25,881 nt of DNA from Candidatus Heimdallarchaeota archaeon (GCA_016839945.1 JAEOTE010000057.1:1-25881); one strand, 5' to 3'. Counted from the first letter of the stretch, positions 2,256-21,012 are shown. Numbers and translations are program-made. The notes: generated by a model from the letters alone, not told the origin.

Positions 2256-3608
2256 TTACAGGAAAAAGGAAACATCCTCAGTATACAAGTAAGGTGCTAA
2301 AATACTATAAGGAGTGTTTATAGGCCTAACAACTTTTCTATCTTCAGTGAAGATCGGATTTTTACATAAGAGATTGTGTATGTTTCCTATTACATCAAAA
2401 GTTTGAAGGGTTTTTTCTATCGAACCTTTTTCAATTTTATATGCATCATTTGCTGAAATTTTGAATGTTCCAGAGTAATAATCAGCAGTCATATATCCAT
2501 GAGTTGAATTGATGAAAATACCTTCAGATATATCATTAATTACTTGATCTAATTTCTGATTCCCTTCCCCAATTATAAGATTAGAAGGATATATTTCAGG
2601 ATAAGATTGATAATTTCTTGGGAAAAGTTCAAACATCTTTACTCTAAATGAATTCCCTGTCATCTCTTCATTCTTTTCTGCATATTGAGAATTATTTAAA
2701 GCAGTTTCAAACACTCCCTTTATAATTATGTTAGTTTTAGCTTGGCTTACACCCTCATCGTCAAAGCTTGTCGAATTTGGTAAACCTGGAACTGTTCCAT
2801 CGTCAATTAAATTAAAGTTCTCAGAAAACTGTATATTTTGGATATTCTCTGAAAATTTCTTGCTTAAGGAAGGTACTAAAGAAAATGAGAAAATCTGTGC
2901 AAAAGCCATTGGAGAGAAAATTACAGGTAATTCTTTGTTTTCTAGTACTTCACTTGGAGCAGATCTTTGAATCGTTTCTGTTACTAAATCTTCAACAATG
3001 CTTGAAACAGAGCTTGGAATCTGACGGCTTGTTAGATGTTTTTCAGAACTAGAAATCATATCATATCCACGGTATAAAGCACGTAAATCAATATCGCACC
3101 AGGTGCTTTTTTCAAAAGCAATTTTCTGAGAAGTATTTACAATAATTTTTCTTTCCAGTGAAAATAATATTGAACCATCTAGAATAATATCTTCAATCTT
3201 GTTCTCTAATTCATTCATAGAATAGGAAATATTGTACATTTCTTCTTCATTAAGTGAAGCAACTCTTTTATCATAAATCTTAGACACCGAGGAAGAGAGT
3301 TTTATTTCAGGAAACTCAAATTTATTACAAATTATTGGATAGGATACTAGAGTTGATAATTTATTGATTTCATCAAGAACTGTTGAAAGCGGAAAGCAAG
3401 CAAAATATAATTGATTTTCTTTAAAAAATCTAACTGCACAACCTACTCTATCAACAGATTGGAAATCTTTGGGAGTTCTATATTCTATCCCTCCCATCAT
3501 TTGAGAGATTGACTGTATGTAGATTTCAGCTTCTTTAACATCGTGTTGTTTATCAAGCTTAACTAAAACCTTAGTTGCAATTTCTTTGAGTTCTTCATCT
3601 GTATACAT
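2256..3608 (-). CDS. pmbA: TldE/PmbA-family non-catalytic subunit of the TldD/E metalloprotease
   Basis: 'LIDDGTVPGLPNSTSFDDEGV', 'TGNSFR', 'PSNL', 'SGTFKI'. No HExxxH motif. Lies 1 nt downstream of tldD. Confidence 0.88.
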   Translation of the reverse strand: MYTDEELKEIATKVLVKLDKQHDVKEAEIYIQSISQMMGGIEYRTPKDFQSVDRVGCAVRFFKENQLYFACFPLSTVLDEINKLSTLVSYPIICNKFEFPEIKLSSSVSKIYDKRVASLNEEEMYNISYSMNELENKIEDIILDGSILFSLERKIIVNTSQKIAFEKSTWCDIDLRALYRGYDMISSSEKHLTSRQIPSSVSSIVEDLVTETIQRSAPSEVLENKELPVIFSPMAFAQIFSFSLVPSLSKKFSENIQNIQFSENFNLIDDGTVPGLPNSTSFDDEGVSQAKTNIIIKGVFETALNNSQYAEKNEEMTGNSFRVKMFELFPRNYQSYPEIYPSNLIIGEGNQKLDQVINDISEGIFINSTHGYMTADYYSGTFKISANDAYKIEKGSIEKTLQTFDVIGNIHNLLCKNPIFTEDRKVVRPINTPYSILAPYLYTEDVSFFL

Positions 3609-3609
3609 T

Positions 3610-4977
3610 TTAACTCACCCTCATTTCTGATACTGCTAATTTAGGACATACAGAGCCAACAAACAGTCGTTGACTATTCTTAACACAACTTCCAGGATGA
3701 GCAAATAATCTATCACCTACACACTCGATTTTAGAGAGAGTATCAATCATTTTTCCACTTACTTGAAATTGGAGAATGTAATCCTGTAGTTCCCCATCTT
3801 TGATTAATCTTCCATATTGTGCATCAAGGTTATACTCTCCTGTTTGAGGTTCAGAAGAACCTCCAAGACCTTCACCTATATACAAACCGTTCTTAACATA
3901 CTCATACATTTCCTCTTCTTTGAAATCCTTAGGTTCAAAGAAGAAATTACTCATTCTTACTTGTGGTAAAAACTCAAAACTAAATGCTCTAAAATTTGCA
4001 GATGTTTCGCTATCCATTGCAGCTGCAGTGATTCGGCTATGCAAGAAATCTGATAAGATCCCTTCGTCAACAAGTAATGTTCCTCTACCTTTTGTTCCTT
4101 CTGAATCAAATTCATAATACCCTAGAGTTTCAATGTATGGATCATCAATTACACTGACAATACTTGGGGCGATTTTCATTCCCAATAAACCTGCGCTGAA
4201 TGATCTTCCTGATAAAACATTATCTGCTTCAAGTGAATGACCTAGAACTTCATGTCCTAATGTCCACGACATATCTTCACTTAATACAGCTTTGTATTTA
4301 CCTTGCTTTGCTTGTTTTGCAGTAGGAAGATTGTTTATTACATCCACAAAACGAAGAGTTTCTTCTTGGTTATTGAAAGGGATAACTTCTAGCCCACCCA
4401 TCCCCCCAAAACTGTGATAGAATTTCACTTTAAGATTATTATGTAAAACTCTACCAGTTAGAGTTAAAACACAATAGGGGTATTCTTGATAAACATTGGA
4501 ACCTTCAGAGTTAACAAAGTTTTCAGACCAATTCATGAAAAATAAATCTGTTTCAATTTTTGCATCTACTTTCAATGACTCTTTTATGTAATCATCAAGA
4601 CTCTTGACTTTTTCACTTAATTCTTCCTTTTCAATTTCTTTCCAACTTATTTTTGGTTTCTTAGTAATTGAAGCATCAGTAACAGGAGCTTCAACCAATG
4701 TAGATATTCCTTTTTTCCATTTTGTCATTAATTTCGACATGTTATATGCTTTCAGAATTTTATCATCAGCAAACTTAAAATCTGGAGTAGATGTAAATGT
4801 GACTATCCCTTCAGAAAGCATTCTTATACCATAACCTGAATTAATGCAAGTGTTTTCAGATGAGATTTTTCCATCTTCAGCAATGATATTTTTTTGTTCT
4901 ATCCTCCCATAACGAATGTCAGTATAGGAAGCTCCTTGCTTCTGTGCAGTTTCTAGCAAAGATTCTAAAGAGTCGAT
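3610..4977 (-). CDS. tldD: TldD-family zinc metalloprotease
   Basis: HEVLGHSLEAD zinc motif, 'FDSEGT', 'VRMSN', C-terminal 'GSCVK' Cys ligand. GAGGTG RBS (4984-4989) sits 6 nt before an in-frame ATC at 4977; the track start is TTG at 4959. Confidence 0.9.
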   Translation of the reverse strand: MDSLESLLETAQKQGASYTDIRYGRIEQKNIIAEDGKISSENTCINSGYGIRMLSEGIVTFTSTPDFKFADDKILKAYNMSKLMTKWKKGISTLVEAPVTDASITKKPKISWKEIEKEELSEKVKSLDDYIKESLKVDAKIETDLFFMNWSENFVNSEGSNVYQEYPYCVLTLTGRVLHNNLKVKFYHSFGGMGGLEVIPFNNQEETLRFVDVINNLPTAKQAKQGKYKAVLSEDMSWTLGHEVLGHSLEADNVLSGRSFSAGLLGMKIAPSIVSVIDDPYIETLGYYEFDSEGTKGRGTLLVDEGILSDFLHSRITAAAMDSETSANFRAFSFEFLPQVRMSNFFFEPKDFKEEEMYEYVKNGLYIGEGLGGSSEPQTGEYNLDAQYGRLIKDGELQDYILQFQVSGKMIDTLSKIECVGDRLFAHPGSCVKNSQRLFVGSVCPKLAVSEMRVS

Positions 4978-6514: not shown

Positions 6515-7255
6515 ATGAGTAAAGAAAGAGAAGAAAATGAGATTGAGATAACTATATTTGATAATAAAGTTGAACAAGTTAATATTTCTATTGAAGATTT
6601 AATCAACAATTATAGTCTTTCAAATAAAAATAAGGAAAAAACTCAAATTTTGGATCAATTGGGAGATTATACAAATTATCCTGTAGTCATAGATTTTCTT
6701 AAAGATACAGCAAAAGAGGATACATATGATTTGTGTAGAGCAAAAGCAGTTTCATATTTTTCAGATTTTACAGATAATGAAGAGATTAAAAATTTATTAC
6801 TTCAGAAACTAAATGATAGTTCTCCTAAAGTAAGATTATGGACTGTGTGGTCCCTAAGAGGAGAAATTCATGATCAAAATATACAATCAGAATTCATTAG
6901 AAGAATTAAATATATCGAGAAAGCAAAAATAGTTAGATTGTGGATTATTAGATCACTAAGCGATGTTATTGATAATGAAAATGTCCAGTATGTTTTCATG
7001 CAACTAATGAAAGAAAAACCTGATACAGAAACTCGAAAACTTCTTCTATATTATTTATTACAGAAGATCGAAAATCCTGATATAAACTACTTCATTTCAT
7101 CATATGTTTTGACAGAAATTAACAAAGATATTCGCAAGGAAATCGTAAAAAAGATGATAGAAATAAACAATGACGACGTTAAATATGCTCTTAATAAACT
7201 AATCAAAACTGAAAAAAATAAGGAAATAAAAGACCTAATCACACAATATATCTAA
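6515..7255 (+). CDS. HEAT-repeat protein, 246 aa
   Basis: Tandem repeats of about 30 aa: 'LCRAKAVSYF', 'LNDSSPKVRLWTVWSL', 'IVRLWIIRSL', 'ETRKLLLYYL', 'DIRKEIVKKM'. Confidence 0.75.
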   Translation: MSKEREENEIEITIFDNKVEQVNISIEDLINNYSLSNKNKEKTQILDQLGDYTNYPVVIDFLKDTAKEDTYDLCRAKAVSYFSDFTDNEEIKNLLLQKLNDSSPKVRLWTVWSLRGEIHDQNIQSEFIRRIKYIEKAKIVRLWIIRSLSDVIDNENVQYVFMQLMKEKPDTETRKLLLYYLLQKIENPDINYFISSYVLTEINKDIRKEIVKKMIEINNDDVKYALNKLIKTEKNKEIKDLITQYI

Positions 7256-7272: not shown

Positions 7273-8709
7273 TTAATCTGCTGGTTCTTTAAAGAAATTA
7301 TTTTTTCCTCTAAGATAAGAAATTAACAATCCTAGAACAGCTATAACGACGAATATTATAAATGCTATTTGAGCGCTTTTAAGAAAGAGAGGTTCATAAT
7401 TTGGGGATTGAGTATCCACATCACTAATTATGACAGCAGATAACAGAGTCCATAATCCCAAACTAATTGTTTGACCTACAGTTCTCATAGTTCCTACAAG
7501 AGCTGAAGCTACTCCATAATCTTTTCTTGGAACCGAACTCATTATCGAATTAGCATTTGGGGAGGAGAAGAATCCAAAACCTATTCCTCCAAAAACCAAG
7601 CTTAAAATAATTATATAGAGTGGTGTATCTGCTTTTAAGAAAGTAAGTAAAGATAATCCAATTATTCCAAAACCTATTCCAGTAGTAGTTATTATTTGAT
7701 GAGCCATTTTATCAGAAATCCAACCACCGAATGGAGATAATATTGCTTGGAAGATAGGTCTAGCGAGTAGTATCAAACCCGCAATATATGCTATCCTAGC
7801 TCCAAATGTTACATGAAGATCATGAACATTCTGTAAATATAAACTAAGAATAAAAGATGTTGCAGCAGTTGCAGTATAATATGTAAAAGCTGCTAGATTC
7901 GCGAAAGTAAAGAAACGATTACTTCCAAACATTCTTAATTGTAGAATTGGGTAATCAATTTTCAGTTCCCAAACGATAAATGCTACTAATGTAATAATTG
8001 ATCCACTAATTAGACCATACCCATAGTATCTTGGTAGAGATCTTAATCCATAGAGAAGCAAGAATAGAGTTGAGATATACATTATTGAGCCAACCCAGTC
8101 AAATTTTTCTTTTGTTTCATTTTTCCATTCTCCTTTTAGTAAGAAAACAACAAGAAATGATATTATAATTCCAAAAGGAACTACACTGAAGAAAACACTT
8201 CTCCATCCTAAGGAATATGTTAGAAAACCCCCCAAGGAAGGTCCAACTGTTAGTCCGAGATAAACTGAACCTATATTGATTCCAAATGCTAATCCTTTCT
8301 TATCTGATGGAAAAACAGAAGTTAATATTGCTGTTCCTGTTGCAAAAACAAGAGCTCCCCCTATTCCTTGAACAAATCTCATTATAATTATCACTGTTGC
8401 AGAATTCATAAATCCAAGAACAAGAGCTGATAAAGAGAAAATTATTGTTCCTATAAGATATATTTTCTTTCTTCCATAATTATCTGCGATTTTACCAAAT
8501 GGTATTTGTAACATAGCTGCTGCTAGTAGGTATATTGTCATAATCCAGCTTAATTCAGGAGTGTTGATATTCAGTTCTGCAGCCATTGTTGGTGCAGCTA
8601 GACCAAAAGCTGATCCACTAAATGCTGAAATAAAAGAAGATACTGATATTATAGAAAGCGCTATAATTCTGTCTTTTATAGGACTTGGTTCAGTGGATTG
8701 AGTTGGCAT
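7273..8709 (-). CDS. MFS transporter, DHA2 (14-TM, EmrB/QacA-like) family
   Basis: Motif A 'GKIADNYGRKK', 'RFVQGIGGA', motif C 'GPSLGGFLT', 'GFGFFSSPN'; about 14 hydrophobic segments. Confidence 0.9.
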   Translation of the reverse strand: MPTQSTEPSPIKDRIIALSIISVSSFISAFSGSAFGLAAPTMAAELNINTPELSWIMTIYLLAAAMLQIPFGKIADNYGRKKIYLIGTIIFSLSALVLGFMNSATVIIIMRFVQGIGGALVFATGTAILTSVFPSDKKGLAFGINIGSVYLGLTVGPSLGGFLTYSLGWRSVFFSVVPFGIIISFLVVFLLKGEWKNETKEKFDWVGSIMYISTLFLLLYGLRSLPRYYGYGLISGSIITLVAFIVWELKIDYPILQLRMFGSNRFFTFANLAAFTYYTATAATSFILSLYLQNVHDLHVTFGARIAYIAGLILLARPIFQAILSPFGGWISDKMAHQIITTTGIGFGIIGLSLLTFLKADTPLYIIILSLVFGGIGFGFFSSPNANSIMSSVPRKDYGVASALVGTMRTVGQTISLGLWTLLSAVIISDVDTQSPNYEPLFLKSAQIAFIIFVVIAVLGLLISYLRGKNNFFKEPAD

Positions 8710-8811: not shown

Positions 8812-10608
8812 TTATAGTTCTAGATGATTTAGTTTTTCTTCTTTAGGGATTCCTTGAGCATCCCATCCTCTTAACTTATAGTATTCAATTTTAGCAGTTT
8901 CAAATCTAGCTTTATCAACAGATAATCCTTTGGCATCACCTTCAGGCATAATATCTTTGTAGAATCTTTTTGGAAGTATATCATCTTCAACTGTAATTCC
9001 TTCTCTTACATTGAATTTTCTTGTAAGATTCCATATTCTTTCTCCCACAGTAAGATAACTCTCAGGAGTATAAGAGAATCCTGTTGCTGAATTTAACATT
9101 TCTACCATTTCAGGTACATTGAAAGGTAAGAAATCACATAAGACTAAAGAAAAGCAAGTTGCTCTTTCATCTTGAGATTCTTTAACAAATTCAGGAACAC
9201 CTTCGAAGCTAAATCGCTTAAGATCTCCTCTTAGTTCAGCTCCTGGTGTCCAACATCGCTGGTGACACGCACCACGATCTGATGTTGAATAAGCTAGAGC
9301 CATTCCCCATGATCCTCGAGGTTCAACTCCTGCTAATTCATTTCCTTTTACTTGAATTGCGAAGTCCAATGAATCACGTCCAATCTCTGAAGCGGCTACT
9401 TTACTACCTTTAGCGAATATTTCACCTATTCCTTTTCTTTTAGCAATTAATTCTAGCATCTGAAGAATTGCTTCAGCATTGCCGAATTTTAAATTAGCAA
9501 CATCATCTTGTTTTAGATATCCTTTTTCTGCACACTCCATTGCAAAACTGATTGTTGCACCAGCTGAAATTGTGTCTATCCCTAGATCATCACACACTTG
9601 GCTAGCTTTAGCTACTGCAGCTAAATCATCAATTCCACAGTTTGAACCAAGTAAAGCTGTTGTTTCATATTCAGGACCTTCTACATCCAATCCTGCATAT
9701 TTCCCTTCTTTCCATTTATTCGCTTTTCCACAAGCTATTAGACAGTTGTAGCACGCTCTATGTGCATATGTGAAATTTTCTATCATATTTTCTCCTGAAA
9801 TAGATTCAGCATTTTCAAACACTCCACTCTGATAGTTTCTTGTGGGTAAAAATCCTCCTTCATTTGACATATTTACCCACATCATTGTTCCAATTTCATG
9901 TCTATGCTGGACACCTGGATTTTCGCGTACTTTTTCTCTGAAAACTTTTGTTAATTCTTTGAAATTATCATTCACAGCATCTATTTGCATGGATCCATCA
10001 GCAACAATTGCTTTCAGGTTTTTTGATCCCATAACAGCTCCTGATCCACCTCGTCCCGCCATATGTGATTTGTCAGTCATTACATTTGCATATGTGACCA
10101 GATTTTCACCAGCAGAACCTATTGAAGCTACTTCTGATTTAGGATGTTTTTCTTTGAGAATTTCTTCAGTTTCGAATGTTCCTTTTCCCCAGATATCATC
10201 TGCTGGTAGAATTTCTAGTTTTTCAGAAGAAACATGAAGATAGCATGGAGATTCAGCTTTCCCTCTTACAAGGACATAATCATATCCTGCTCTTTTTAAT
10301 CTATACCCAAATTTCCCACCTATATGACTATCTAGAAAAATACCTGTATGAGGAGATTTTGTAACTATACACCATCTCCCAGAAGTTACTACAGATGTTC
10401 CTGATAAAGGTCCTGTCATAAACAGGATAATATTTTCAGGAGAAAGTGGATCAATTCCTGGTTTGAGTTCATCATATAGTATTTTAGCTCCTAATCCTTT
10501 ACCACCAATATATTTCTCAGCTAGTTCAAGATCGAGCTTCTTTTCATGTATTTTACCTGATGATAAATCTACATCAAGGTATTTGTACATATAGCCCATT
10601 GATTTCAA
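8812..10608 (-). CDS. aor: Tungsten-dependent aldehyde:ferredoxin oxidoreductase family protein
   Basis: 'GGKGLG', 'KSP', 'AGRGGSGAVMGSKNLKAI', 4Fe-4S 'CYNCLIAC', 'EGPEYET', 'DDLGIDTIS', 'DRGACH', 'LCDF'. The TTG start overlaps the hom stop (TTGA). Confidence 0.93.
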   Translation of the reverse strand: MKSMGYMYKYLDVDLSSGKIHEKKLDLELAEKYIGGKGLGAKILYDELKPGIDPLSPENIILFMTGPLSGTSVVTSGRWCIVTKSPHTGIFLDSHIGGKFGYRLKRAGYDYVLVRGKAESPCYLHVSSEKLEILPADDIWGKGTFETEEILKEKHPKSEVASIGSAGENLVTYANVMTDKSHMAGRGGSGAVMGSKNLKAIVADGSMQIDAVNDNFKELTKVFREKVRENPGVQHRHEIGTMMWVNMSNEGGFLPTRNYQSGVFENAESISGENMIENFTYAHRACYNCLIACGKANKWKEGKYAGLDVEGPEYETTALLGSNCGIDDLAAVAKASQVCDDLGIDTISAGATISFAMECAEKGYLKQDDVANLKFGNAEAILQMLELIAKRKGIGEIFAKGSKVAASEIGRDSLDFAIQVKGNELAGVEPRGSWGMALAYSTSDRGACHQRCWTPGAELRGDLKRFSFEGVPEFVKESQDERATCFSLVLCDFLPFNVPEMVEMLNSATGFSYTPESYLTVGERIWNLTRKFNVREGITVEDDILPKRFYKDIMPEGDAKGLSVDKARFETAKIEYYKLRGWDAQGIPKEEKLNHLEL

Positions 10609-11645
10609 CTCTTTCCAAGAATTCTATTGATATCGAGAATATCTGTAAGTAATGCAAAACCTGTTGGAGCTTTCCCAGCACCTGGACCAACTATAGTAAC
10701 ATCATCAAGATATTTTGTTGAGTAAGTGAGAGCATTTGTAGGCCCCATTATGTTTGCTAAGGGATGTTCTAAAGGTATTTTTTCTGGTCTGACATAAGCT
10801 TCTACTGACCCATCAGCTTTTATTTCTGCTCCAGCAATTAGTTTCCATCTGTAACCTTCTTCTTTTGCTTTTGCAATATCATCAGCTGTAATTTTAGTTA
10901 TTCCTTCACAAGGTGGTTCATCTTTACCTAGTTTAGCTCCCATAACTGTATTAGCTAGGATTACAATTTTTCCTAATGCATCATACCCTTCTACATCAGC
11001 TGTAGGATCAGCTTCTGCATAACCTAATTCTTGAGCTTGTTTCAAGGCATCCTCATAGTCGAGTCCCTTCTCCATCTCTGTTAGAATATAATTTGTTGTC
11101 CCATTAACAATCCCTCTAGCTTTAGTTATTCCTGCTCCAGCAAGATTATAGAGACCTAAATTCAAAGCGGGAGTACCACTCAATACAGTTCCTTCATACC
11201 TCATTTCTACATCATTTTGTTTTGCTAAATCAAGTAATTCGCGAACAGCCAAAGCTATAGGTCCTTTGTTTGTAAGTACTACATGCTTCTTCTTATTTAT
11301 CGCAGTTTTTACATGAGTTATTGCAGGCTCTCCTGTTTTCAAATCAGTCCAGGCAACTTCTAAAATCATATTTGCATTTGTGTCAGTTATTGTTTTCAGA
11401 GAATCCCAGCCTTTAATCCCATCAGGATATTCTTCAATCTTCCCTGTTTCTTTAACAAGTTTCAGAAGTTCCTTTAAATCTAAACCATTTTCATCATAAA
11501 CAGAACCCTTAACGACATCTGAAATTGCTACTACTTTAAAATGAAAACTATAGTCTTTCTTTAATAGATCTTCTTGTTCAACTAAAATTTCAGCTAAACC
11601 TTGACCTACAACACCAAAGCCTATAAAGGCAATATTGAATACCAT
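10605..11645 (-). CDS. hom: Homoserine dehydrogenase, short form without ACT domain
   Basis: Rossmann GFGVVG, 'TNKGP', 'YEGTVLSGTP', 'GIVNGTTNYIL', catalytic 'AEADPTADVEGYDALGK', 'GPGAG'. GAGG RBS. Confidence 0.92.
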   Translation of the reverse strand: MVFNIAFIGFGVVGQGLAEILVEQEDLLKKDYSFHFKVVAISDVVKGSVYDENGLDLKELLKLVKETGKIEEYPDGIKGWDSLKTITDTNANMILEVAWTDLKTGEPAITHVKTAINKKKHVVLTNKGPIALAVRELLDLAKQNDVEMRYEGTVLSGTPALNLGLYNLAGAGITKARGIVNGTTNYILTEMEKGLDYEDALKQAQELGYAEADPTADVEGYDALGKIVILANTVMGAKLGKDEPPCEGITKITADDIAKAKEEGYRWKLIAGAEIKADGSVEAYVRPEKIPLEHPLANIMGPTNALTYSTKYLDDVTIVGPGAGKAPTGFALLTDILDINRILGKS

Positions 11646-11688
11646 ATTAATTCCTCAGTGTTTAATTAAATTTAGAATATAGTGCATG

Positions 11689-11696
11689 TTTATAAG
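11689..11696. promoter_or_regulatory. Putative shared TATA box (TTTATAAG on +, CTTATAAA on -) for the divergent hom and 2-TM genes
   Basis: TATA-like on both strands and about 43 nt from each proposed start codon; each start has its own RBS. Confidence 0.45.
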
Positions 11697-11738
11697 TTTG
11701 ATTACAAATAGACATCTAAGAAATTAACCAAGGCGATC

Positions 11739-12557
11739 ATTATATTAACTATAGGACCTCAAAAAGGAAAAGATAGACCTCCAAGAAATAAAATAATAGC
11801 ACTTCTGCTTTCAATTTTATGGGGTGTTTCAGGAATAACAACAGCGATTTTAGATTATAAGGATATTATAGATATAAGAGAAGTTATCAGATTACCTATT
11901 GGTTTTGTAATCCTCATTTTTGTCATAATCGGTTTTTTTGCTATCTTCACCCTTTATTCTATTTATGGAGTTATAAAGGAAATAAGGCATAATGCTAGAA
12001 CAAAAGACATAGTAACAGCTGAAGAAGTGTTCCAGGAAAAATATGGTGATGAATTAGAGATTCAAAAATCACCAGTTCTAGCACAATTAGTTGCATATCT
12101 TGAAGAGATTGGAGCTGTTAAAATTGTACAAACTCATGGATACATGCCCAAAGTTGAGTTCTTCTTTCCTTCTGATCACAAGTTTGATTCTTATCAAAAA
12201 ATAACAATGATTATTGAAAAAGAAAATGAACTAATACTTAACGCTGAGATAAAATACGAGTTCCCTTCATTTTTTAGTATAAGAAAAAGAGAGGAAATCG
12301 AAATCAAAAAGAAGAAAAGGAAACCTAAAGAAACACAACCATTCTTTGAAAAATATTTAGTAACATCAAATGATGAAAAATTTACAAGTAGAATAATAGA
12401 GGAAACTCTTATTGATGAAGTAGTTTCAGAAAAAGAAGCGCATCTTGAACAAATTTCTGTTCATGGAAACACACTTACTGCAGCTTTATCAAGTATTGAA
12501 TCAATTGAACTATTTTTCATTCTCATGTCTACAATAATGAATACTTATACTAGATAA
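11739..12557 (+). CDS. Membrane protein with 2 N-terminal TM helices and a soluble alpha/beta domain; probable ATT/ATA start (about 272 aa)
   Basis: The frame is open from 11712 (after TAG 11709-11711) to 12557. The roughly 96 codons upstream of the track GTG (12027) encode two hydrophobic segments ('IIALLLSILWGVSGITTAIL', 'LPIGFVILIFVIIGFFAIFTLYSIYGVI') and contain no ATG/GTG/TTG. RBS-like AGGCGA at 11731-11736. Confidence 0.7.
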   Translation: MILTIGPQKGKDRPPRNKIIALLLSILWGVSGITTAILDYKDIIDIREVIRLPIGFVILIFVIIGFFAIFTLYSIYGVIKEIRHNARTKDIVTAEEVFQEKYGDELEIQKSPVLAQLVAYLEEIGAVKIVQTHGYMPKVEFFFPSDHKFDSYQKITMIIEKENELILNAEIKYEFPSFFSIRKREEIEIKKKKRKPKETQPFFEKYLVTSNDEKFTSRIIEETLIDEVVSEKEAHLEQISVHGNTLTAALSSIESIELFFILMSTIMNTYTR

Positions 12558-12596
12558 GAAAAAAAGAAATAGCTGTAATCTATTATTACATTACGA

Positions 12597-13427
12597 ATGA
12601 TTATTGATGGACATGCTCACGCTATGGGAGAATTTGGTGATCCAGATTTACTTGTGAAACTTTTAGATAAACTTGGAGTAGATAAAGTGGTTTTATGCTC
12701 TGGAGGTTTTAACTCATCAGAAAGACCTAATGTACCAAAAATAAAGGAGAGTCGAATTGTAAAAAACCGACATTTAATCATGTTTTCTAATAGGTTTCTT
12801 CATTCACTTATCCATCTTAAAGGAGGAGTAAAGGAAAGCGATATTGGGAATGAACTTGTTTATTCTTTTAAACAGAAATATCCAGAGAGAATCATTCAAT
12901 ATTATTGGACAACTCCAAACCAGCAGAATATTTTAGAAAAACTTGAAAATGTAAGAACTTCAATGAAAATCGATGGTATTAAATTACATCAGTGTGTACT
13001 GAGATTTTCTAACTCAAGTTCAGGAATGGAGAAATTAGTAAAATATGCTGGAGAGTATCAATTACCAATTTTCATTCATCCATATTCTCCAAAAGAAATT
13101 AAGATACTCATACAGTTAGCGAAAAAATATTCTGATACAAAGTTTACAATAGCTCATTTAATGGGTTTAGAAATTATCGCTAGATATGGAAAAGAACTTG
13201 AAAATATATACTTTGACATTTCTCCTTATCATGTAATCTCAGAAAAAAGAATTTTCAGAGCTATTGATAAATTTGGGATTAAGAAGATAATTATGGGGTC
13301 TGATACTCCCATGGGAGAAAATAATTTAGAGAGAAACATAAAAAAAATAAGAAACTTGAATCTTTCCAAAAAAGATAAAGATTTGATTCTTGGGGATAAT
13401 ATTGCTAGACTTCTAAAAATTATATAA
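12597..13427 (+). CDS. Amidohydrolase_2 family TIM-barrel metallohydrolase
   Basis: 'IIDGHAH', 'GIKLH', 'PIFIHP', 'IAHL', 'YFDIS', 'GSDTP', 'ILGDNIARLL'. Confidence 0.88.
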   Translation: MIIDGHAHAMGEFGDPDLLVKLLDKLGVDKVVLCSGGFNSSERPNVPKIKESRIVKNRHLIMFSNRFLHSLIHLKGGVKESDIGNELVYSFKQKYPERIIQYYWTTPNQQNILEKLENVRTSMKIDGIKLHQCVLRFSNSSSGMEKLVKYAGEYQLPIFIHPYSPKEIKILIQLAKKYSDTKFTIAHLMGLEIIARYGKELENIYFDISPYHVISEKRIFRAIDKFGIKKIIMGSDTPMGENNLERNIKKIRNLNLSKKDKDLILGDNIARLLKII

Positions 13428-13437
13428 AAAAAGAAGT

Positions 13438-14598
13438 TTAGTCAAATGATTCTTTGATCTGTTTAACTGCTTGATTAATTGTCTCAACTGAGGTAGCATA
13501 TGAAAATCTAATATAACCTTCACCATTTGGACCAAATGATGAACCAGGGAGACAACACACATGAGCATTATAAAGAAGGTGATCAGCCATTTCTCTTGAA
13601 GACATTCCTGTTTTTTTAATGTTTGGGAAAGTGTAGAATGCTCCTTCAGGTGTTAAACAAGAGAAATTAGGAATACTATTCAAACCTTTAACAATAGCAT
13701 CTCTTCTTATCCTAAATAATCTCATCATTTCGAATAGTGGTTCTTGATCCCCTTTTAATGCAGTAATCCCTGCTTTTTGAACAAAAGAAGTAGTACAAGA
13801 AAGAGCATTAATCATAAGTAAACCCATCTTTTCAATAACATGTTGAGGTCCAATTATGTATCCTAGTCTCCAGCCAGTCATTGAATATGATTTCGAAAAT
13901 CCATCAAGAAGAATTGTTCTTTCTTTTGTTTCATCTCTAACAGTTACTGAATGAAATTCTGCATCATAAAGCATTTTGGAATAGATTTCATCTCCAAGAA
14001 CATATATCTCATGTTGTTCTGCTAATTCTGCAATTTTTTCTATTTCTTGCTTTGTCATAACAGAACCAGTAGGATTTTGGGGACTGTTTAATATAATTAA
14101 CTTAGTTTTTTCAGTAATTCTGTCTTCAATATCATCAGGATTCAATCTGAACTCATTTTCTTCTTTTAGAGCTATTGGGACATCTCCTGCATTTAGATAT
14201 TTTACAACAGAACCATAGGTTGGAAAACCTGGATCTGGATAAATTACTTCATCTCCAGGGTTTACTAATCCTAGCATGGTAAAAAATATTCCAGGTTTAG
14301 CTCCAGGGAGAATAAGTATTTGTTCAATATCTGGTTTGAAACCTCGAGAGAATTCAACTTCCTCTTGAATAGCTTGTTTTAATTCGAGTATTCCAGTAGC
14401 AGCAACATAGCCAGTAAAATTAGTTTTAATTGCATCATAAGCAGTTTCTTTGATATGTTCAGGAGTTGGAAAGTCAGGTTGCCCAATTTCAAAGTGAAGA
14501 ATCGTTTTTCCTTCTCTTTCCAAAGCTTGAGCTTTCGCTAGATACTCAAATGCACCTTCTCCGAGGATTTTATACATTCCACTAGCCATTTTTTTCAT
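13438..14598 (-). CDS. PLP-dependent class I/II (aspartate-type) aminotransferase
   Basis: 'GQPDFPTP', 'LNSPQNPTG', 'DEIY', PLP-lysine 'GFSKSYSMTGWRLGY', 'GYIRFSYA'. ATG at 14598 follows AGTGA; the track start is GTG at 14607. Confidence 0.93.
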   Translation of the reverse strand: MKKMASGMYKILGEGAFEYLAKAQALEREGKTILHFEIGQPDFPTPEHIKETAYDAIKTNFTGYVAATGILELKQAIQEEVEFSRGFKPDIEQILILPGAKPGIFFTMLGLVNPGDEVIYPDPGFPTYGSVVKYLNAGDVPIALKEENEFRLNPDDIEDRITEKTKLIILNSPQNPTGSVMTKQEIEKIAELAEQHEIYVLGDEIYSKMLYDAEFHSVTVRDETKERTILLDGFSKSYSMTGWRLGYIIGPQHVIEKMGLLMINALSCTTSFVQKAGITALKGDQEPLFEMMRLFRIRRDAIVKGLNSIPNFSCLTPEGAFYTFPNIKKTGMSSREMADHLLYNAHVCCLPGSSFGPNGEGYIRFSYATSVETINQAVKQIKESFD

Positions 14599-14617
14599 TT
14601 TATTCACTAGCTTGAAT

Positions 14618-15901
14618 TTATCTGTGATGTAGATTTCTTGCAGCTATGAAAGAGAGACCTTTTTCAGTCAGAGCTTTTGCTGTATCATTAATAGCAGTTT
14701 GTCTGTCAAGATAATTTAATTCTAAATGATGCCAAATACCTTCTTCATGGATTTGTTCTTTTGTTTTGAAGTAATCAAGTATATCAGTAGGATGTTCTCT
14801 AGCTTGATCTATTTCAACAGGACCACCTTCATGTTTGGCACTGATGTTTCGAACTTTAGGAGCTATCTCCAATAATTCTTGAGTTCTATCATAGGGTTGT
14901 CTAACTATTGATTTCTGAGTCTCTATAATATGATGTTCTAAGCGAATAACTTCTTCAAAATCAAAATAATTTCTAACATCTGAGCTTAGCTCAATAGTCC
15001 AATTGTTAACAGCATTTGAAAGGTTGAAACCAATTAATGGACTAGTTCCATCAGATCTAGAAAATAGTTTTGCAGTTAATATTGTCCAAAGAACACTGTA
15101 TGGATTGTCATTACCCATATAAACTGATATTTTGAACTCATTATTAACACCCAACTTGTAAAGCATATAACCTAATATGACGGTTCCAGGATTTATATTC
15201 AAAACTTCTTTGATACCATATTTTGTGTAGTAATAAAGAAACTCGTCTACCCACTTTAGAGCAAAATCATTAGGTTGACCAACACCACCAAAATAACCTG
15301 TAATTGTTGCAGGACCACCTAGATGAACATTTACTGGTAAACCATCTGGACCAGGTTGTGTTCCTTTTGTATCTAATGTTTCAACTCGTGAAGCTCCTAT
15401 GATATCCACAGCAGCTGTCATAGCTAATAAGTCACCATCTTTTTCCTGTTCACTCATATTCCTTACACGAATGATTCTTCCAGGTAGTAATTCTTTCTCT
15501 GCAATGGCTCTTTCTGCTCCTTTTATCAAGAATGGAAAATATTGACAAGCTGATAATTCAAGTGTTACAGCAAAGGAATCATCAAAAGTCATTCTATCAA
15601 TTGCGTTTCCTAGAATTTTTCTTTTATATTCGTTAACACTAATGAAAGACTCATTATCTCTCTGCTTGATTAACCATTCAAGATTATCAATATAATCTGG
15701 ATTTACATCTGCAAGCTTATCATAAATGGTTTCGAGTTTTCTAGCTTCTACGAATTTCTTGTTAATTTCATCTACTCCTCCATATTTATCTATTACATTT
15801 AATAGATCATTTATGAACGGATTATTTTCATCTAAAAGAAATTGTTGTATGGCATGGAAACTTTCCAATGAAATTTCTAATCTTTTTCTAATATCAGACA
15901 T
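14618..15901 (-). CDS. Hypothetical protein with enzyme-like motifs, probable (beta/alpha)8 barrel, 427 aa
   Basis: GGAGG RBS + ATG. Eight short beta-like segments alternate with helices (TLELS, IIRVR, VETLD, VLNIN, FKISV, IGFNL, RLEHH, ISAKHE). Gly-rich loop 'NVHLGGPATITGYFGGVGQPND'. Ends 10-19 nt upstream of the aminotransferase start. Confidence 0.8.
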   Translation of the reverse strand: MSDIRKRLEISLESFHAIQQFLLDENNPFINDLLNVIDKYGGVDEINKKFVEARKLETIYDKLADVNPDYIDNLEWLIKQRDNESFISVNEYKRKILGNAIDRMTFDDSFAVTLELSACQYFPFLIKGAERAIAEKELLPGRIIRVRNMSEQEKDGDLLAMTAAVDIIGASRVETLDTKGTQPGPDGLPVNVHLGGPATITGYFGGVGQPNDFALKWVDEFLYYYTKYGIKEVLNINPGTVILGYMLYKLGVNNEFKISVYMGNDNPYSVLWTILTAKLFSRSDGTSPLIGFNLSNAVNNWTIELSSDVRNYFDFEEVIRLEHHIIETQKSIVRQPYDRTQELLEIAPKVRNISAKHEGGPVEIDQAREHPTDILDYFKTKEQIHEEGIWHHLELNYLDRQTAINDTAKALTEKGLSFIAARNLHHR

Positions 15902-15997: not shown

Positions 15998-16840
15998 CTA
16001 TTTTTTCTTCCTTATCTTTACTAAGGCTTCTTGAGCACTTTTCTGCACAAAAGGATTATCATCTTCTAGCAACTTTTCAAGAGGTTCCATTGAACTGACA
16101 TTGCCTATTATTCCTAGTATTTCAGCTGCATTTTGTTTAATGAACCAATCTTTGTCATGAGTAGCTACATGGAGTAAATCAATAACTTTAGATGAACCAA
16201 TTTTTCCCAATGCTTTAGCAGCACTAATTTTAACGTCATTATTTAAATCAATCATAAATAAATCGAAGAGAGGTTGAATTGCTTCTGAATCACCAATTTC
16301 ACCTAAAACCCATGCAGCTTTAGATCTTACATCCTTATCTTTATCCCCCAAGAAATTGAGTATTTTGAATAAATTAAGCTGCTCTAGTATTAGCAAATCT
16401 TCCCATTTCTCTTTTGCTATAATAGTAAGAACTTCTTCATCGATATTCTTTGGAATCCATCCTAAGTATTCCAAAACTACTGCTACTTCACTTCGTACTT
16501 CCCAGTTTTCATCCTCAAGTTTCCATACAAGTTCATTCATTGCGTCAAATGCATACATATCTCCAAGAGCTCTTGCAACACTTTTTCTGACTCTCCAATC
16601 ACTATCATCTAAAGCTTTAACTAACTCATCTAAAGCTTCTGTAGCTTCAATCTTCCCTAAAGCCCATGCTGCTCTACTCCTAACTTCAGAAGCTTCATCA
16701 AAAAGACACTTTATCAAAGAAGGTATAGCAGATTTATTATTACTATTATCAACTATGGAATTAATAGTAAAAACTCTAACATGAGGATCTTCATCTCTTA
16801 AACTCTCTAAGAGATATTCCATTTCGTCTTCATCAAGCAA
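15998..16840 (-). CDS. HEAT/PBS-lyase repeat protein, 280 aa
   Basis: Canonical repeats 'DEASEVRSRAAWALGKI', 'DSDWRVRKSVARALGDM', 'DKDKDVRSKAAWVLGEIG', 'DVKISAAKALGKIG'. Confidence 0.92.
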   Translation of the reverse strand: MLDEDEMEYLLESLRDEDPHVRVFTINSIVDNSNNKSAIPSLIKCLFDEASEVRSRAAWALGKIEATEALDELVKALDDSDWRVRKSVARALGDMYAFDAMNELVWKLEDENWEVRSEVAVVLEYLGWIPKNIDEEVLTIIAKEKWEDLLILEQLNLFKILNFLGDKDKDVRSKAAWVLGEIGDSEAIQPLFDLFMIDLNNDVKISAAKALGKIGSSKVIDLLHVATHDKDWFIKQNAAEILGIIGNVSSMEPLEKLLEDDNPFVQKSAQEALVKIRKKK

Positions 16841-17185: not shown

Positions 17186-17292
17186 CTCTTTTAATTTTTT
17201 CTCAATTCTACGATAGAATCAACTAATTTTAATATTTGTACAAAAAAACTATTTTAAGAAGTCAGATAATTAAATCTATAGAGGTTATACAT

Positions 17293-20200
17293 ATGGATGA
17301 CCTAAATCGAGAAGAATCTAGTACAATTAATAAAAATATAATCAAAGTTTTACATATTGATGATGAAGAAGATTTCCTTATAATCACAAAAGAATTTGTT
17401 GAAAGACTCAGTGAAGGAGAGATTTCAGTAGTTTCAAGTTCTAACCCATTAGAAGCATTAGAGAGAGTAGAAACAAAAAAATTTGATGTTATTGTTTGTG
17501 ATTATATGATGGAAGAGCTTAATGGTTTAGATCTTCTCAGAAAATTAAAAACACAAGATTATGATATACCCTTTATAATCTTTACAGGAAGAGGGAGAGA
17601 AGAAGTAGTGATAAAAGCACTAAACCTAGGTGCTGATTATTATCTTCGAAAAGGATTAGATGCTAAAAGTCAATATGCTGAACTCGTACATCAAATTAAG
17701 ACTGTCTTTAGACACAAAACAGCTGAAAGGGGTTTACGTGAATCAGAAGAAAAATTTTCTCTATTTCTAAATAATGTTCCAGCAGTTGCTTATTTGAAAG
17801 ATGAAGAAGGGAGATATACTTTCTTTAATGATTATCTATATGATGTTTACAAAGTAACACCAGAAGAAATAATTGGAAAAACAGCTTCAGAGTTTTTTGG
17901 AGAAGAAGAAGGTAAAGAGATAGAAAAAGAGGATGAGATAGTATTAAGGGAAGATTTCTGGACATCAATAGGAACTAGGACACTAGGTGATGAAGAGTAT
18001 ACTTTCAAGATGTACAAATTTCCATTAAAAAGAGAAGGAAAACCTACAATAATTGCTGGTTTTAGTGAAGATGTCACCCAACAAAGAGAAATGGAAAGAA
18101 TTTTGCATGAAACAGTATCAAGATATAGAAATTTAGTAGAATCATTTAATGATATTGTTTTTATTACTGATTTAGAATCAAGAATGCTTTATGCAAATCC
18201 TGCATTAAGAAATCAAACAGGATTTACTAAGGATGATTTTCAATTCACACAAGCAGAAAATCCATTCATTCACCCAGAAGATGCTGAAAGAGTTGCAAAA
18301 TTCATACTTGACTTCATTCAAAGTGAACAGGAACAATCTGATATAATTGAAAATAGGTTCATTGATAAAGAAGGGAAAACATATTGGTTTTCATCAGTTA
18401 TCACAAAAATCACATATGAAGGAATTCCAGCTTTACAATACATTGTTCATAATATAACAGAAAGAAAAGAATTAGAAGAAGAACTGAAGGATGAAAGAGA
18501 TTTATCTAATCTTTATCTAGATGAAGCAGGAGTCATGTTTGTTATAGTAGATGAAAATGAAGAAACTCTTCAAATAAACAAAAAAATGACTGAAGTGCTA
18601 GGTTATACAGAAGAAGATTTAATAGGTAAAAATTGGTTTGAAACTGTCTATCCTAGAGAGCTTCAAGATGAGTTTAAGTTTAGTTTTCAGCAAGTAATTG
18701 CAGGAGTATCAGAACCAATCGAATACATAGAAATTGATATGCAAACAAAGGATGGAGAGAAGAAATATGTTTCATGGAGAAATATAGCAATTAAGGATAA
18801 AACCGGGAAAATAATTCAACTATTGGGAACAGGGGAAGATATTACAGAAAGAAAAGATATGGAGAAAGCTCTACAAGAACAAGAAGAGCGATATAGAACA
18901 GTAGTTGAGTTATCTCCAGATTCTATTGTTTTAGCAGATTTGAAGGGAAATATAGTTTTTGCAAATAATAGCGCAGCAATTATGCATGGCGTTGAGAATC
19001 CAGAAGAACTTATAGGTTCAAGCATGATAGAATTTACTGCTCCTGAAGATCATCAAAGATTAGTTAATAATCTTAGGAGAAATTTTGCAGACGCTCAATT
19101 CGATCAAACTATGGAATATACAATGTTGAAAAAAGATGGAACTCATTTTCCAGTTGAATTAAGAGCTTCAATGATATTTGATGATCAAGGTAAACCTTTT
19201 GGTTTATTAGGTGTTGGAAGAGATATTTCTGAAAGAAAGAAATTCGAAAGAGAACTTAAGCTATCAGAAGCGTTATACAGAACTATATTTGAGTCAATTG
19301 GATCAGCAAATGCAATTGCTAGAGATGATAAAATTGTAACTTTAGTAAATGCAAAAATGGAGGAATTGTCAGGATATTCAAAAGAGGAAATAGAAGGAAA
19401 GATGAGTTGGACTGAATTTATTCCTGAAACTGATTTAGAACGCATGAGAGAAATAAGTAACAAAAGATTGGAAGATCCAAGTTCTGCTCCTTCCAGCTAT
19501 GAAAGTAAATTCATTACAAAAAGTGGTGAGATAAGGAATAGTTTACTTCATGTGGGAGTAATTCCAGGAACGAAAAATGTTGTTGTTTCAGTAATGGATA
19601 TCAAAGAACTAAAAGAAGTAGAACAAAAATTGAAAAAATCCGAAAATCTTTACAGAACTATTTTTGAAACTACTGGGACAGCCAATGCAATAGTTAAGGA
19701 AGATACTTCTATTACACAAGTAAATTCCAGATTGGAAGAATTGATTGGCTATTCAAAGGAGGAATTATTGCGTAAAAAATGGATAGAATTAGTACCACAA
19801 TCAGAGCTTCCAAAGTTGAGAGAATTTCAAGAATTACGAGCAAAAGATCCTAGTATAGCACCTTCAAAATATGAAACGATAATGATTACTAAGGGAGGAG
19901 AAACTAAAGATATCTTAGTTTATATCGATAAAATTCCTGGAACTGATGAGTCTATAGCTTCTGTAATGGATATCTCAGATTTAAAAAGAATTCAAGAAGA
20001 ATTAGAACGATCTGAAAACCTTTATAGAATGTTATTTACAAGTACAGGAGCTGCTAACATTACTTTTGATGAAGAAGCGAATATTACAATGATTAATTCA
20101 AGGATGGAAAAACTCTCAGGTTACACAAGAGAAGAAGTTGAGGGAAAAATGAAATGGACCGAATTTATACCTGAACCTGAACTAAGTATGATGTTAGAAT

Positions 20201-21012
20201 ATAACGAAATAAGAAAAAAAGATCCTCGATTAGCTCCAATACAATATGAAAGTAGATTTATCGATAAGGAAGGAAACATAAAAAACATCTTATTAAATGT
20301 TAATCAACTACCTAACTTGGATATTTTTGTTGCGTCTTTAATGGACATTACATCTAAGAAGAAAGTAGAAGAGGAATTAAAAAAGCAACGAGAGGAGTTA
20401 AGCGATTTTGCTCATTTAATGGCTCATGATATCAGAAATAGCTTGTCTGCAATTGAAGGATTCATTGATCTTCATATCGAAACAAAAGAGGATGAGTATA
20501 TAGGAAAAGTAAACAAACAAACATTATATCTGAGAGGGTTACTTGATAGATCAATTGAACTTGCTGAAGCAGGACAAAGTGTAGAAAAGTCAGACAATGT
20601 GGATTTAAATGAGCTTGTTAAATCAGTTGCTGAAATGATTTTACCTAAAGGAATAAGAATTACACAAAAAGATCTAACAACTATTCGGGCTGACAAAAGT
20701 AAACTGTCACAGATTTTAAAGAATCTATTTGAAAATGCAGTCATCCATGGGAAACCTAAGAGTGTTGCTGTTAAGCAATTAGAAACAGAGGGTGAAATAA
20801 TTCTAATTATAAAGAATGATGGTGCAAAGATTAGCCCTAAGGTTGTGAAAGATGCATTTGAAACCAGTTTTTCAACAAAGGAAATGCTTGAATGGCACGG
20901 TTTAACTATTGTAAAGAAACTAGTTACAGCTCATGGATGGGATATCAGACTTGATGAATATGATGAAATGACTTGTTTCGAAATAATTATCCCAAAAAAG
21001 GTTAGATATTAA
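17293..21012 (+). CDS. Cytoplasmic hybrid sensor kinase: REC - 7 PAS/PAC - HisKA - HATPase_c
   Basis: REC 'HIDDE...VCDYMM...FTGRG...YLRKG'; seven PAS units ending in D/N-I-T-E-R-K-like motifs; H-box 'AHDIRNSL'; N-box 'NLFENAVIHG'. GAGGT RBS at 17281 supports ATG 17293 over TTG 17236. Confidence 0.92.
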   Translation: MDDLNREESSTINKNIIKVLHIDDEEDFLIITKEFVERLSEGEISVVSSSNPLEALERVETKKFDVIVCDYMMEELNGLDLLRKLKTQDYDIPFIIFTGRGREEVVIKALNLGADYYLRKGLDAKSQYAELVHQIKTVFRHKTAERGLRESEEKFSLFLNNVPAVAYLKDEEGRYTFFNDYLYDVYKVTPEEIIGKTASEFFGEEEGKEIEKEDEIVLREDFWTSIGTRTLGDEEYTFKMYKFPLKREGKPTIIAGFSEDVTQQREMERILHETVSRYRNLVESFNDIVFITDLESRMLYANPALRNQTGFTKDDFQFTQAENPFIHPEDAERVAKFILDFIQSEQEQSDIIENRFIDKEGKTYWFSSVITKITYEGIPALQYIVHNITERKELEEELKDERDLSNLYLDEAGVMFVIVDENEETLQINKKMTEVLGYTEEDLIGKNWFETVYPRELQDEFKFSFQQVIAGVSEPIEYIEIDMQTKDGEKKYVSWRNIAIKDKTGKIIQLLGTGEDITERKDMEKALQEQEERYRTVVELSPDSIVLADLKGNIVFANNSAAIMHGVENPEELIGSSMIEFTAPEDHQRLVNNLRRNFADAQFDQTMEYTMLKKDGTHFPVELRASMIFDDQGKPFGLLGVGRDISERKKFERELKLSEALYRTIFESIGSANAIARDDKIVTLVNAKMEELSGYSKEEIEGKMSWTEFIPETDLERMREISNKRLEDPSSAPSSYESKFITKSGEIRNSLLHVGVIPGTKNVVVSVMDIKELKEVEQKLKKSENLYRTIFETTGTANAIVKEDTSITQVNSRLEELIGYSKEELLRKKWIELVPQSELPKLREFQELRAKDPSIAPSKYETIMITKGGETKDILVYIDKIPGTDESIASVMDISDLKRIQEELERSENLYRMLFTSTGAANITFDEEANITMINSRMEKLSGYTREEVEGKMKWTEFIPEPELSMMLEYNEIRKKDPRLAPIQYESRFIDKEGNIKNILLNVNQLPNLDIFVASLMDITSKKKVEEELKKQREELSDFAHLMAHDIRNSLSAIEGFIDLHIETKEDEYIGKVNKQTLYLRGLLDRSIELAEAGQSVEKSDNVDLNELVKSVAEMILPKGIRITQKDLTTIRADKSKLSQILKNLFENAVIHGKPKSVAVKQLETEGEIILIIKNDGAKISPKVVKDAFETSFSTKEMLEWHGLTIVKKLVTAHGWDIRLDEYDEMTCFEIIIPKKVRY
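19264..20380 (+). repeat. Three tandem paralogous PAS domains (PAS5-7), period 375/372 nt
   Basis: 'SEALYRTIFESIGSANAI', 'SENLYRTIFETTGTANAI' and 'SENLYRMLFTSTGAANIT' start at 19264, 19639 and 20011 and share 'GYS/T-KEE/REE', 'W(T/I)E(F/L)(I/V)P', 'DP..AP..YE'. Confidence 0.85.

Follow-up and report, generated by a model that had tools for sequence, protein, structure and literature searches.

An orphan barrel protein clustered with an aminotransferase, a homoserine dehydrogenase and an aldehyde:ferredoxin oxidoreductase in Heimdall-type archaea: a possible oxidative module at the homoserine/aspartate semialdehyde node

In meta-cleavage modules of the MhpD/E/F and DmpFG type, a 2-oxo acid is converted to a 4-hydroxy-2-oxo acid, which an aldolase splits into pyruvate and a toxic aldehyde that is captured by a coupled enzyme; in synthetic "homoserine cycles" and aldolase-transaminase cascades, which are engineered or run in vitro, pyruvate and formaldehyde yield 4-hydroxy-2-oxobutanoate (HOB) and then homoserine. 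In canavanine degradation by Pseudomonas canavaninivorans and Rhizobiales, the sequence from homoserine via aspartate semialdehyde (ASA) to aspartate has been reconstituted, in Pseudomonas, with an aldehyde dehydrogenase and a homoserine dehydrogenase (Hom) that is short and NAD-dependent (PMC9533460). Here we analyze a four-gene locus in a 25,881-nucleotide stretch of DNA from a Candidatus Heimdallarchaeota archaeon (GCA_016839945.1 JAEOTE010000057.1:1-25881; the whole stretch is called the window). Its genes, all on the minus strand, encode a 427-residue protein without a Pfam or NCBIfam match (P0001, hereafter U427; 14618-15901), a class I/II aminotransferase of the aspartate/aromatic aminotransferase subgroup (AT; 13438-14607; PF00155, 223 bits), a Hom of 346 residues (10605-11645; NF004912, 423 bits) and a tungsten/molybdopterin-type aldehyde:ferredoxin oxidoreductase (AOR; 8812-10608; AFOR_N 267 bits, AFOR_C 453 bits). 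Judged from sequence and gene order, the four genes form a conserved functional unit whose linkage is beyond chance. We tentatively read them as one module at the homoserine/ASA node, running oxidatively from HOB, and would put this reading a little short of an even chance.

An earlier note on the window had described two coupled minus-strand gene pairs, 1.8 kb apart, with an MFS transporter gene downstream, and genes of these families are indeed present at those positions. U427 lies upstream of AT with a spacing of 10 nt and is preceded by a GGAGG ribosome-binding site (~15913-15909) and a TTTAAAA box (~15972-15966); the stop of Hom and the start of AOR overlap by 4 bp, and upstream of Hom lie a separate TATA-like box (~11695-11689) and a ribosome-binding site (GAGG). 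The 1.8-kb gap between Hom and AT is occupied by two genes on the opposite strand (12027-13427), one encoding a 176-residue protein to which no family was assigned (12027-12557, plus) and the other an Amidohydro_2 protein of 276 residues (12597-13427, plus; weak PDB match 3CJP). This two-gene insertion is carried by loci L038 and L057-L060 and is missing from L061-L063 and L037; as genus mates occur both with and without it, the window is a split version of one operon. The Amidohydro_2 family includes lactonases and decarboxylases, and the inserted gene may have a functional link to the operon.

Our census of U427 surroundings, comprising 101 loci with family scans of the neighboring genes, revealed that U427, AT, Hom and AOR are contiguous and co-directional in this order in other Heimdall and Hodarchaeales genomes, sometimes with the MFS gene after AOR (L037, L061, L062). 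AT orthologs, 61-86% identical, follow U427 in 16 loci, and AOR orthologs adjoining Hom or U427 elsewhere are 46-80% identical. A Thermoplasmatales metagenome-assembled genome (MAG; L122) has the order U427, Hom, AOR, AT, with identities to the window of 62% for Hom, 63% for AT and 46% for AOR, and a Bathyarchaeota MAG (L109) has the order Hom, AOR, U427, with Hom 58% and AOR 54% identical to those of the window. The expectation that the four genes would recur in one another's neighborhoods was thereby borne out, and because adjacency is kept though the order is rearranged across three phyla, we surmise that the linkage reflects functional coupling rather than inherited synteny. In relatives, genes of an Opp peptide transporter and of a small AsnC-type regulator flank the operon.

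Homologs of U427 form more than 8000 sequence clusters, and more than 571 stretches of a species-genome collection carry the gene; among 201 sampled Asgard genomes, to which the family counts below refer, it is single-copy in 103. The main family (60-97% identical) spans Heimdall, Loki, Thor, Hod, Hermod and Odin lineages, Bathyarchaeia and one MAG each of Thermoplasmatales and Thermoflexia, and a divergent branch (36-46% identity) comprises members from Anaerolineae, cyanobacteria and deltaproteobacteria. A place for U427 in a known family was sought and given up: Pfam had no match for 20 members even at E values up to 5, single-sequence and profile searches of the PDB returned no relative, and the ESM Atlas, searched by features and by structure, gave nothing usable. 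One 385-residue homolog (P0124, L138:8001-9158; 50% identity) lies on a 41-kb contig labelled by VirSorter, next to a clamp-loader-like gene, ERCC4, Vsr, ThiF and many tiny ORFs, and may be a virus-carried metabolic gene.

The invariant residues of U427 include E115, R142, R147, H193, K257, D265, E322, H324, K356, H357 and E358. The three His, together with invariant Glu and Asp, are of a kind that could bind a metal, and H193, H324 and H357 with E115, E322 and E358 are candidate ligands. The AlphaFold (AF2) model built from 32 sequences (pLDDT 91, pTM 0.90), which replaced a 20-sequence model with a pLDDT of 75 and generic barrel matches, has residues 1-103 folded as a helical domain at the N-terminus and residues 112-420 as a (beta/alpha)8 barrel, in keeping with the TIM barrel guessed earlier; a Gly-rich loop (178-212) is strongly conserved and poorly modelled. 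The top Foldseek rows are class II metal-dependent aldolases (E ~1e-4 to 1e-3, prob ~1.0, TM 0.33-0.48). An exhaustive VIA-align comparison yielded a flat list (Z 11-12.6), led by CutC, IspG and BKACE and including GlmE, in which class II aldolases are not at the top and Mk0906 (5D88), a U32 barrel, holds rank 23 with a Z of 11.2. By sequence, U427 does not belong to the class II aldolase family (PF01116): it has no Pfam or NCBIfam match, and identity in structural alignments is 8-12%. A relationship to U32-type peptidase barrels (PF01136) is not supported at the sequence level, as hhalign of the U427 alignment against ten Asgard U32 proteins gave a probability of 0.2%, the same as for unrelated controls. 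From the model, it seems reasonable, albeit on a weak basis, to regard U427 as a metal-dependent enolizing barrel.

As for the partners, AT is by sequence a class I aminotransferase resembling aspartate aminotransferase (AspAT): its best PDB matches, 1DJU and 1GD9, are AspAT and aromatic aminotransferase, its score against the archaeal AspAT model NF041091 is 325 bits, below the cut-off of 550, and none of the 25 best NCBIfam matches listed attains its threshold. Hom scores above the equivalog threshold of NF004912 (423 vs. 373 bits), matches PF00742 with 200 bits and PF03447 with 26 bits, and has Hom 3DO5 as its closest PDB match; it appears to be devoid of a regulatory domain, in that no Pfam family besides the three dehydrogenase domains was reported. 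AOR is full-length, covering profile positions 2-198 of 199 in PF02730 and 2-385 of 385 in PF01314, and the nearest solved structure is the AOR of P. furiosus (1AOR, 462 bits, vs. 362 bits for FOR). It is one of seven host paralogs, the six others being at most 40% identical. Because its gene overlaps Hom by 4 bp and the two genes stay adjacent in other genomes, ASA would be the substrate of this AOR.

Three context patterns of U427 emerged from the 101 loci: AT-Hom-AOR; an aldolase of the DHDPS type fused to formaldehyde-activating enzyme (DHDPS-Fae); and, in Thorarchaeota, an ECF S-component upstream of U427 plus a divergent ThrC-PadR gene. In Loki, Hermod and Odin genomes, as well as in part of those from Thor and Heimdall, the DHDPS-Fae gene comes directly downstream of U427, and in Bathyarchaeia it is divergently transcribed from it; a DHDPS-type aldolase directly adjoins U427 in ~55 of the 101 loci. 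At the genome level, cluster-type Hom and DHDPS-Fae are complementary, and every family with U427 has one set, as evidenced by: 1) family f1, with U427 in 16/21 genomes, cluster-type Hom in 15/21 and DHDPS-Fae in 0/21; 2) f5, with 10/10, 9/10 and 0/10, respectively; 3) f6, with 3/3, 0/3 and 3/3; 4) f10, with 41/43, 2/43 and 41/43; and 5) f13, with U427 in 26/40, DHDPS-Fae in 40/40 and no cluster-type Hom, 20/40 genomes having a different Hom that is ~38-40% identical. In locus L056, a DHDPS-like gene without Fae overlaps the start of U427 by 4 bp. A 759-residue ORF (P0272, L139:2979-5258) has an N-terminal DHDPS-like domain fused to a full U427 domain (54% identity); this fusion is from a single metagenomic contig and could be an assembly or frameshift artefact. 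The most divergent homolog (P0131 in L024, 36% identity) heads a set of genes for an IlvD/EDD-type dehydratase, an MBL-fold hydrolase, Dak1/Dak2 and an IclR regulator, which looks like a sugar-acid context that would also give a 2-keto-3-deoxy (4-hydroxy-2-oxo) acid.

These partner sets suggest a place for U427. Partner enzymes in the divergent bacterial branch, such as PanB, DHDPS and a PanE-type reductase, have 2-oxo acids as substrates, and both PanB and DHDPS-type aldolases form 4-hydroxy-2-oxo acids. PanB and the aldolase-Fae fusion would each connect such an acid reversibly with a 2-oxo acid and a methylene-pterin or formaldehyde unit. Hom and AOR, acting after AT or an amino-acid dehydrogenase, would connect it reversibly with aspartate via homoserine and ASA; since HOB is the sole metabolite common to the alternative partner sets, we place U427 at HOB. 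In the module that we favor, U427, as an aldolase-like, metal-dependent TIM barrel, would supply a C4 2-oxo acid, most likely HOB, which AT would convert to homoserine and Hom would pass on to ASA; AOR, translationally coupled to Hom, would oxidize ASA to aspartate with ferredoxin, thus pulling the unfavorable Hom step, and AT would possibly act once more in converting aspartate to oxaloacetate. The net conversion would be HOB + NAD(P)+ + oxidized ferredoxin to oxaloacetate + NAD(P)H + reduced ferredoxin. A candidate precursor of HOB is the keto acid of methionine, which would fit because an enolizing enzyme is then followed by a transaminase. In lineages without AT-Hom-AOR, HOB would be split into pyruvate and a C1 unit by the aldolase-Fae fusion or PanB.

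The sequences show which genes are present, that the cluster is conserved, which other partners U427 has and that the canonical pathway is missing from the 88% complete host genome; we infer HOB as the shared metabolite, and likewise the substrate of AOR, which way flux runs and what U427 catalyzes. Aldehyde oxidation is the normal activity of AOR-family enzymes, and we favor the oxidative direction since such oxidation would pull the Hom step. The same direction is favored by: 1) the host, which shows no ASA consumer besides Hom; 2) the peptide transporter genes and AsnC-type regulator flanking the operon in relatives; and 3) the reconstituted route from homoserine via ASA to aspartate in the canavanine pathway (PMC9533460). 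The oxidative catabolic scheme put forward in the earlier note is thus retained in part: the conserved unit, the AspAT-like AT and the canavanine precedent speak for it, but the entry via U427 would most likely be at HOB instead of leading directly to homoserine or ASA, and with this entry AT would act at the HOB step. With more doubt than confidence, we raise the possibility that U427 catalyzes a reaction absent from the enzyme catalogue and defines, with its partners, a widespread unseen C4 pathway in Asgard archaea, Bathyarchaeia and other sediment anaerobes. One option is that U427 would form HOB from a 2-oxo acid, e.g., methionine keto acid or vinylglyoxylate, by metal-dependent gamma-elimination/hydration; another would be a new C1-C3 aldol step.

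The nature of DHDPS-Fae bears on whether ASA, rather than HOB, is the hub. This protein (e.g., L041:7240-8754; L049-L053, L064-L098) is ~500 residues long, is encoded in 142/201 Asgard genomes and is barely above the dapA cut-off (214.6 vs. 206 bits). It is present in 18/19 genomes of family f16, where no Asd, Hom or U427 was found, and its motif reads YNIPxCT or YQLPALT, with Cys or Leu at the position of the Arg in the DapA motif YN.P.RT that we take to be the ASA-binding residue. Based on these two features, DHDPS-Fae is probably not a true DapA and would rather be a mislabelled pyruvate/formaldehyde (tetrahydromethanopterin, H4MPT) aldolase. A role as an H4MPT-dependent stand-in for PanB was discarded, as PanB co-occurs with it in f10, f13 and f16. 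If ASA were the hub, U427 would act as an aldolase or lyase with a metal cofactor, freeing ASA from a larger amino-acid skeleton, for example a C7 keto acid derived from diaminopimelate or lysine, with Hom, AOR and the DapA-like partner acting on ASA and with disproportionation of ASA to homoserine and aspartate included. That ASA is a known or plausible substrate of Hom, AOR (putatively) and DHDPS-family enzymes would agree with such a role, as would the class II aldolases topping the Foldseek list and the presence of AOR beside U427 and DHDPS-Fae in L103 and, together with DHDPS, beside U427 in L163 and L164 of the divergent bacterial branch. However, DHDPS-Fae would not be working on ASA in the f16 genomes, its Cys or Leu replaces the presumed ASA-binding Arg, and the PanB and Fae partners indicate hydroxymethyl (C1) chemistry on 2-oxo acids; we therefore consider ASA improbable as the hub.

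PanB itself is encoded before a U427 homolog on three contigs of the divergent branch that are unrelated to one another; the two genes are direct neighbors in L137 and L165, whereas an FGGY kinase gene separates them in L163. A Calothrix cluster has the order TPP (thiamine pyrophosphate)-enzyme, PanE-type reductase, ELFV amino-acid dehydrogenase, DHDPS, U427. Both arrangements would be accommodated by ketopantoate/pantoate-type chemistry, in which U427 acts on the PanB product or a close analogue and Hom and AOR oxidize a pantoate-like primary alcohol. We nevertheless hold this to be very improbable, given that Hom scores above the homoserine dehydrogenase equivalog cut-off, that the aminotransferase is AspAT-like, and that a separate PanB is encoded away from U427 in 148/201 Asgard genomes, the host among them.

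The gene content of the host, a 3.0-Mb, 88% complete Asgard (Heimdall-type) MAG, was assessed by whole-genome searches for pathway enzymes, with positive controls in 14 reference genomes. Aspartokinase (AK) and Asd were not found in this genome of 88% completeness, nor was any ThrB above cut-off, i.e., no homoserine kinase, and DapA, Fae and HcyBio were not found either; hence the complete lysC-asd-thrBC set, the presence of which would have spoken against the earlier catabolic proposal, was not seen. Hom is single-copy, being the cluster gene, and the host has a bona fide threonine synthase (ThrC; PRK08197, 561 bits) and one Cys/Met-family pyridoxal phosphate (PLP) enzyme, O-acylhomoserine-sulfhydrylase-like or MGL-like, for which no specific cut-off was reached. 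In the family of the host, Asd is found in 0/21 and AK in 0/12 genomes; in the sister family f2, which is without U427, AK is found in 3/3, Asd-type matches in 7/7 and ThrB in 6/7. GHMP-type ThrB was found in just 15/201 Asgard genomes, although Hom is common in the sample and both the host and Thor loci have ThrC; in most Asgard archaea the enzyme that phosphorylates homoserine seems to have escaped identification. We tried U427 as a substitute for ThrB, but ThrB and U427 occur together in four f5 genomes and many lineages are without both, so that the two are not anticorrelated. The idea that the cluster strictly takes the place of Asd was likewise rejected, as family f13 has both Asd and U427.

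This distribution raises the possibility of a biosynthetic replacement, in which AOR would run in reverse, reducing aspartate to ASA with reduced ferredoxin, and Hom would then draw the reaction on to homoserine, giving an ATP-free substitute for AK and Asd in lineages that have lost them. In this case AT would turn oxaloacetate into aspartate, and the keto acid of homoserine would be used or processed by U427. Acetogens and engineered Pyrococcus reduce acids by means of AOR and an alcohol dehydrogenase acting after it, a precedent for this direction, and the host and its family are without AK and Asd, yet Hom and a bona fide ThrC are retained in the host. Sister family f2, having AK, Asd and ThrB but no U427, and the ThrC gene beside U427 in Thorarchaeota point the same way. 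On the other hand, Asd and U427 are both present in f13, homoserine kinase was not found in the host, and the co-occurrence of ThrB with U427 in four f5 genomes makes U427 no obvious kinase substitute. Moreover, neither DapA nor HcyBio was found, so that the host shows no ASA consumer apart from Hom, ferredoxin-driven acid reduction is thermodynamically uphill, and the operon is flanked by peptide-uptake genes in relatives. Taken together, we judge the reverse direction unlikely, if still worth serious attention.

Several points weigh against the oxidative reading from HOB: 1) HOB was chosen among substrates that the neighboring enzymes could share, these enzymes being known here from their genes; 2) ASA suits Hom, AOR and a DapA-like partner equally directly; 3) the PanB and PanE neighbors point equally to ketopantoate, because the known substrate of PanB is alpha-ketoisovalerate and not pyruvate; 4) an aldolase-like chemistry for U427 would be weakly based, the fold matches to the model being flat (Z 11-12.6, TM at most 0.48); 5) homoserine may be wanted for biosynthesis in the host, as this has a bona fide ThrC and a sulfhydrylase- or MGL-like enzyme; 6) the contrast between f2 (AK, Asd and ThrB, no U427) and the cluster families (no AK or Asd) fits biosynthetic replacement too; and 7) the host genome is 88% complete.

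Downstream of the operon in the window lies the gene of a DHA2/EmrB-like MFS transporter (7273-8709, minus; PF07690, 231 bits; efflux_EmrB, 187 bits, below cut-off). The 102-nt spacer between AOR and this gene holds T tracts and a TATA-like box; since T6 and T7 runs follow the AOR stop codon and the gene has its own TATA-like box, it is probably a separate transcription unit with its own promoter. The encoded protein resembles an efflux pump, and its membership in the module is uncertain. As a conserved partner of U427 the MFS protein was rejected, the one beside a bacterial U427 homolog being unrelated (~25% identity over 154 residues). Elsewhere in the window are a tandem TldD/PmbA-type metallopeptidase pair (2256-4959, minus), followed by a 508-residue ORF without a Pfam or NCBIfam match (635-2161, minus); a gene for a 1258-residue hybrid response-regulator/PAS/histidine-kinase protein (17236-21012, plus); and three scattered genes for HEAT-repeat proteins (11-568, 6515-7255 and 15998-16840).

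Few proteins outside known families are as strongly conserved in Asgard archaea and Bathyarchaeia as U427. The archaea of these groups are dominant in anoxic sediments, and the Asgard archaea have a central place in models of how eukaryotes arose; their amino-acid metabolism is at present reconstructed from annotation alone. Many of these genomes are without AK, Asd and ThrB yet have Hom and ThrC, which bears on threonine, methionine and aspartate metabolism. If the oxidative reading from HOB is true, ferredoxin-linked oxidation of homoserine and ASA would add a source of low-potential electrons to peptide fermentation; if the reverse reading is true, the cluster would offer an ATP-free route to homoserine. 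The C4 pathway, if it exists, would link amino-acid carbon to aspartate and oxaloacetate or to pyruvate and methylene-H4MPT.

Compared with described systems, the pair of U427 and DHDPS-Fae has a layout like that of the MhpD/E/F and DmpFG modules, but the protein families differ: U427 resembles neither FAH nor MhpD, a DHDPS-type enzyme serves as the aldolase and the aldehyde would be captured by Fae/H4MPT. In the window, the aldolase branch of this layout is replaced by AT-Hom-AOR. Class II fructose-bisphosphate/YdjI-type aldolases, the best Foldseek matches to the modelled U427 barrel, are set apart by 9-12% identity and the lack of sequence similarity, and U427 has in addition a 100-residue helical domain and the conserved Gly-rich loop (178-212). 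The synthetic homoserine cycle shares with the scheme proposed here its intermediates and enzyme types, namely a 2-oxo-acid aldolase or PanB, a transaminase and Hom. Our literature search found no description of such a natural HOB-homoserine pathway or of the U427 step, and none of the cluster, the U427 family, the Hom-AOR pairing or the Fae-DHDPS fusion; a search on Heimdall and threonine returned unrelated papers alone, and one on HOB, homoserine and formaldehyde in archaea returned a single review, on biocatalytic C-C bond formation, with no natural pathway (PMC7918591).

The canavanine pathway offers the nearest natural parallel in its logic, with a head enzyme that yields homoserine, then Hom leading to ASA, then an aldehyde-oxidizing enzyme leading to aspartate, the genes being clustered with a transporter gene (PMC9533460). 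As in that pathway, Hom is here clustered with an aldehyde-oxidizing enzyme, and AK and Asd are missing from the cluster. There remain differences between the two: 1) the head enzyme is a PLP gamma-lyase in the canavanine pathway and an orphan TIM barrel here; 2) the aldehyde step is catalyzed there by an NAD-dependent aldehyde dehydrogenase and would be catalyzed here by a ferredoxin-linked W/Mo-pterin AOR; 3) the exit is an aspartase there and would be an AspAT-like transaminase here, with no aspartase in the cluster (PMC9533460); and 4) the hosts here are anaerobic archaea, unlike the bacteria of the canavanine pathway. The combination of Hom with aldehyde oxidation has therefore a bacterial precedent, and the reaction of U427 itself may be new.

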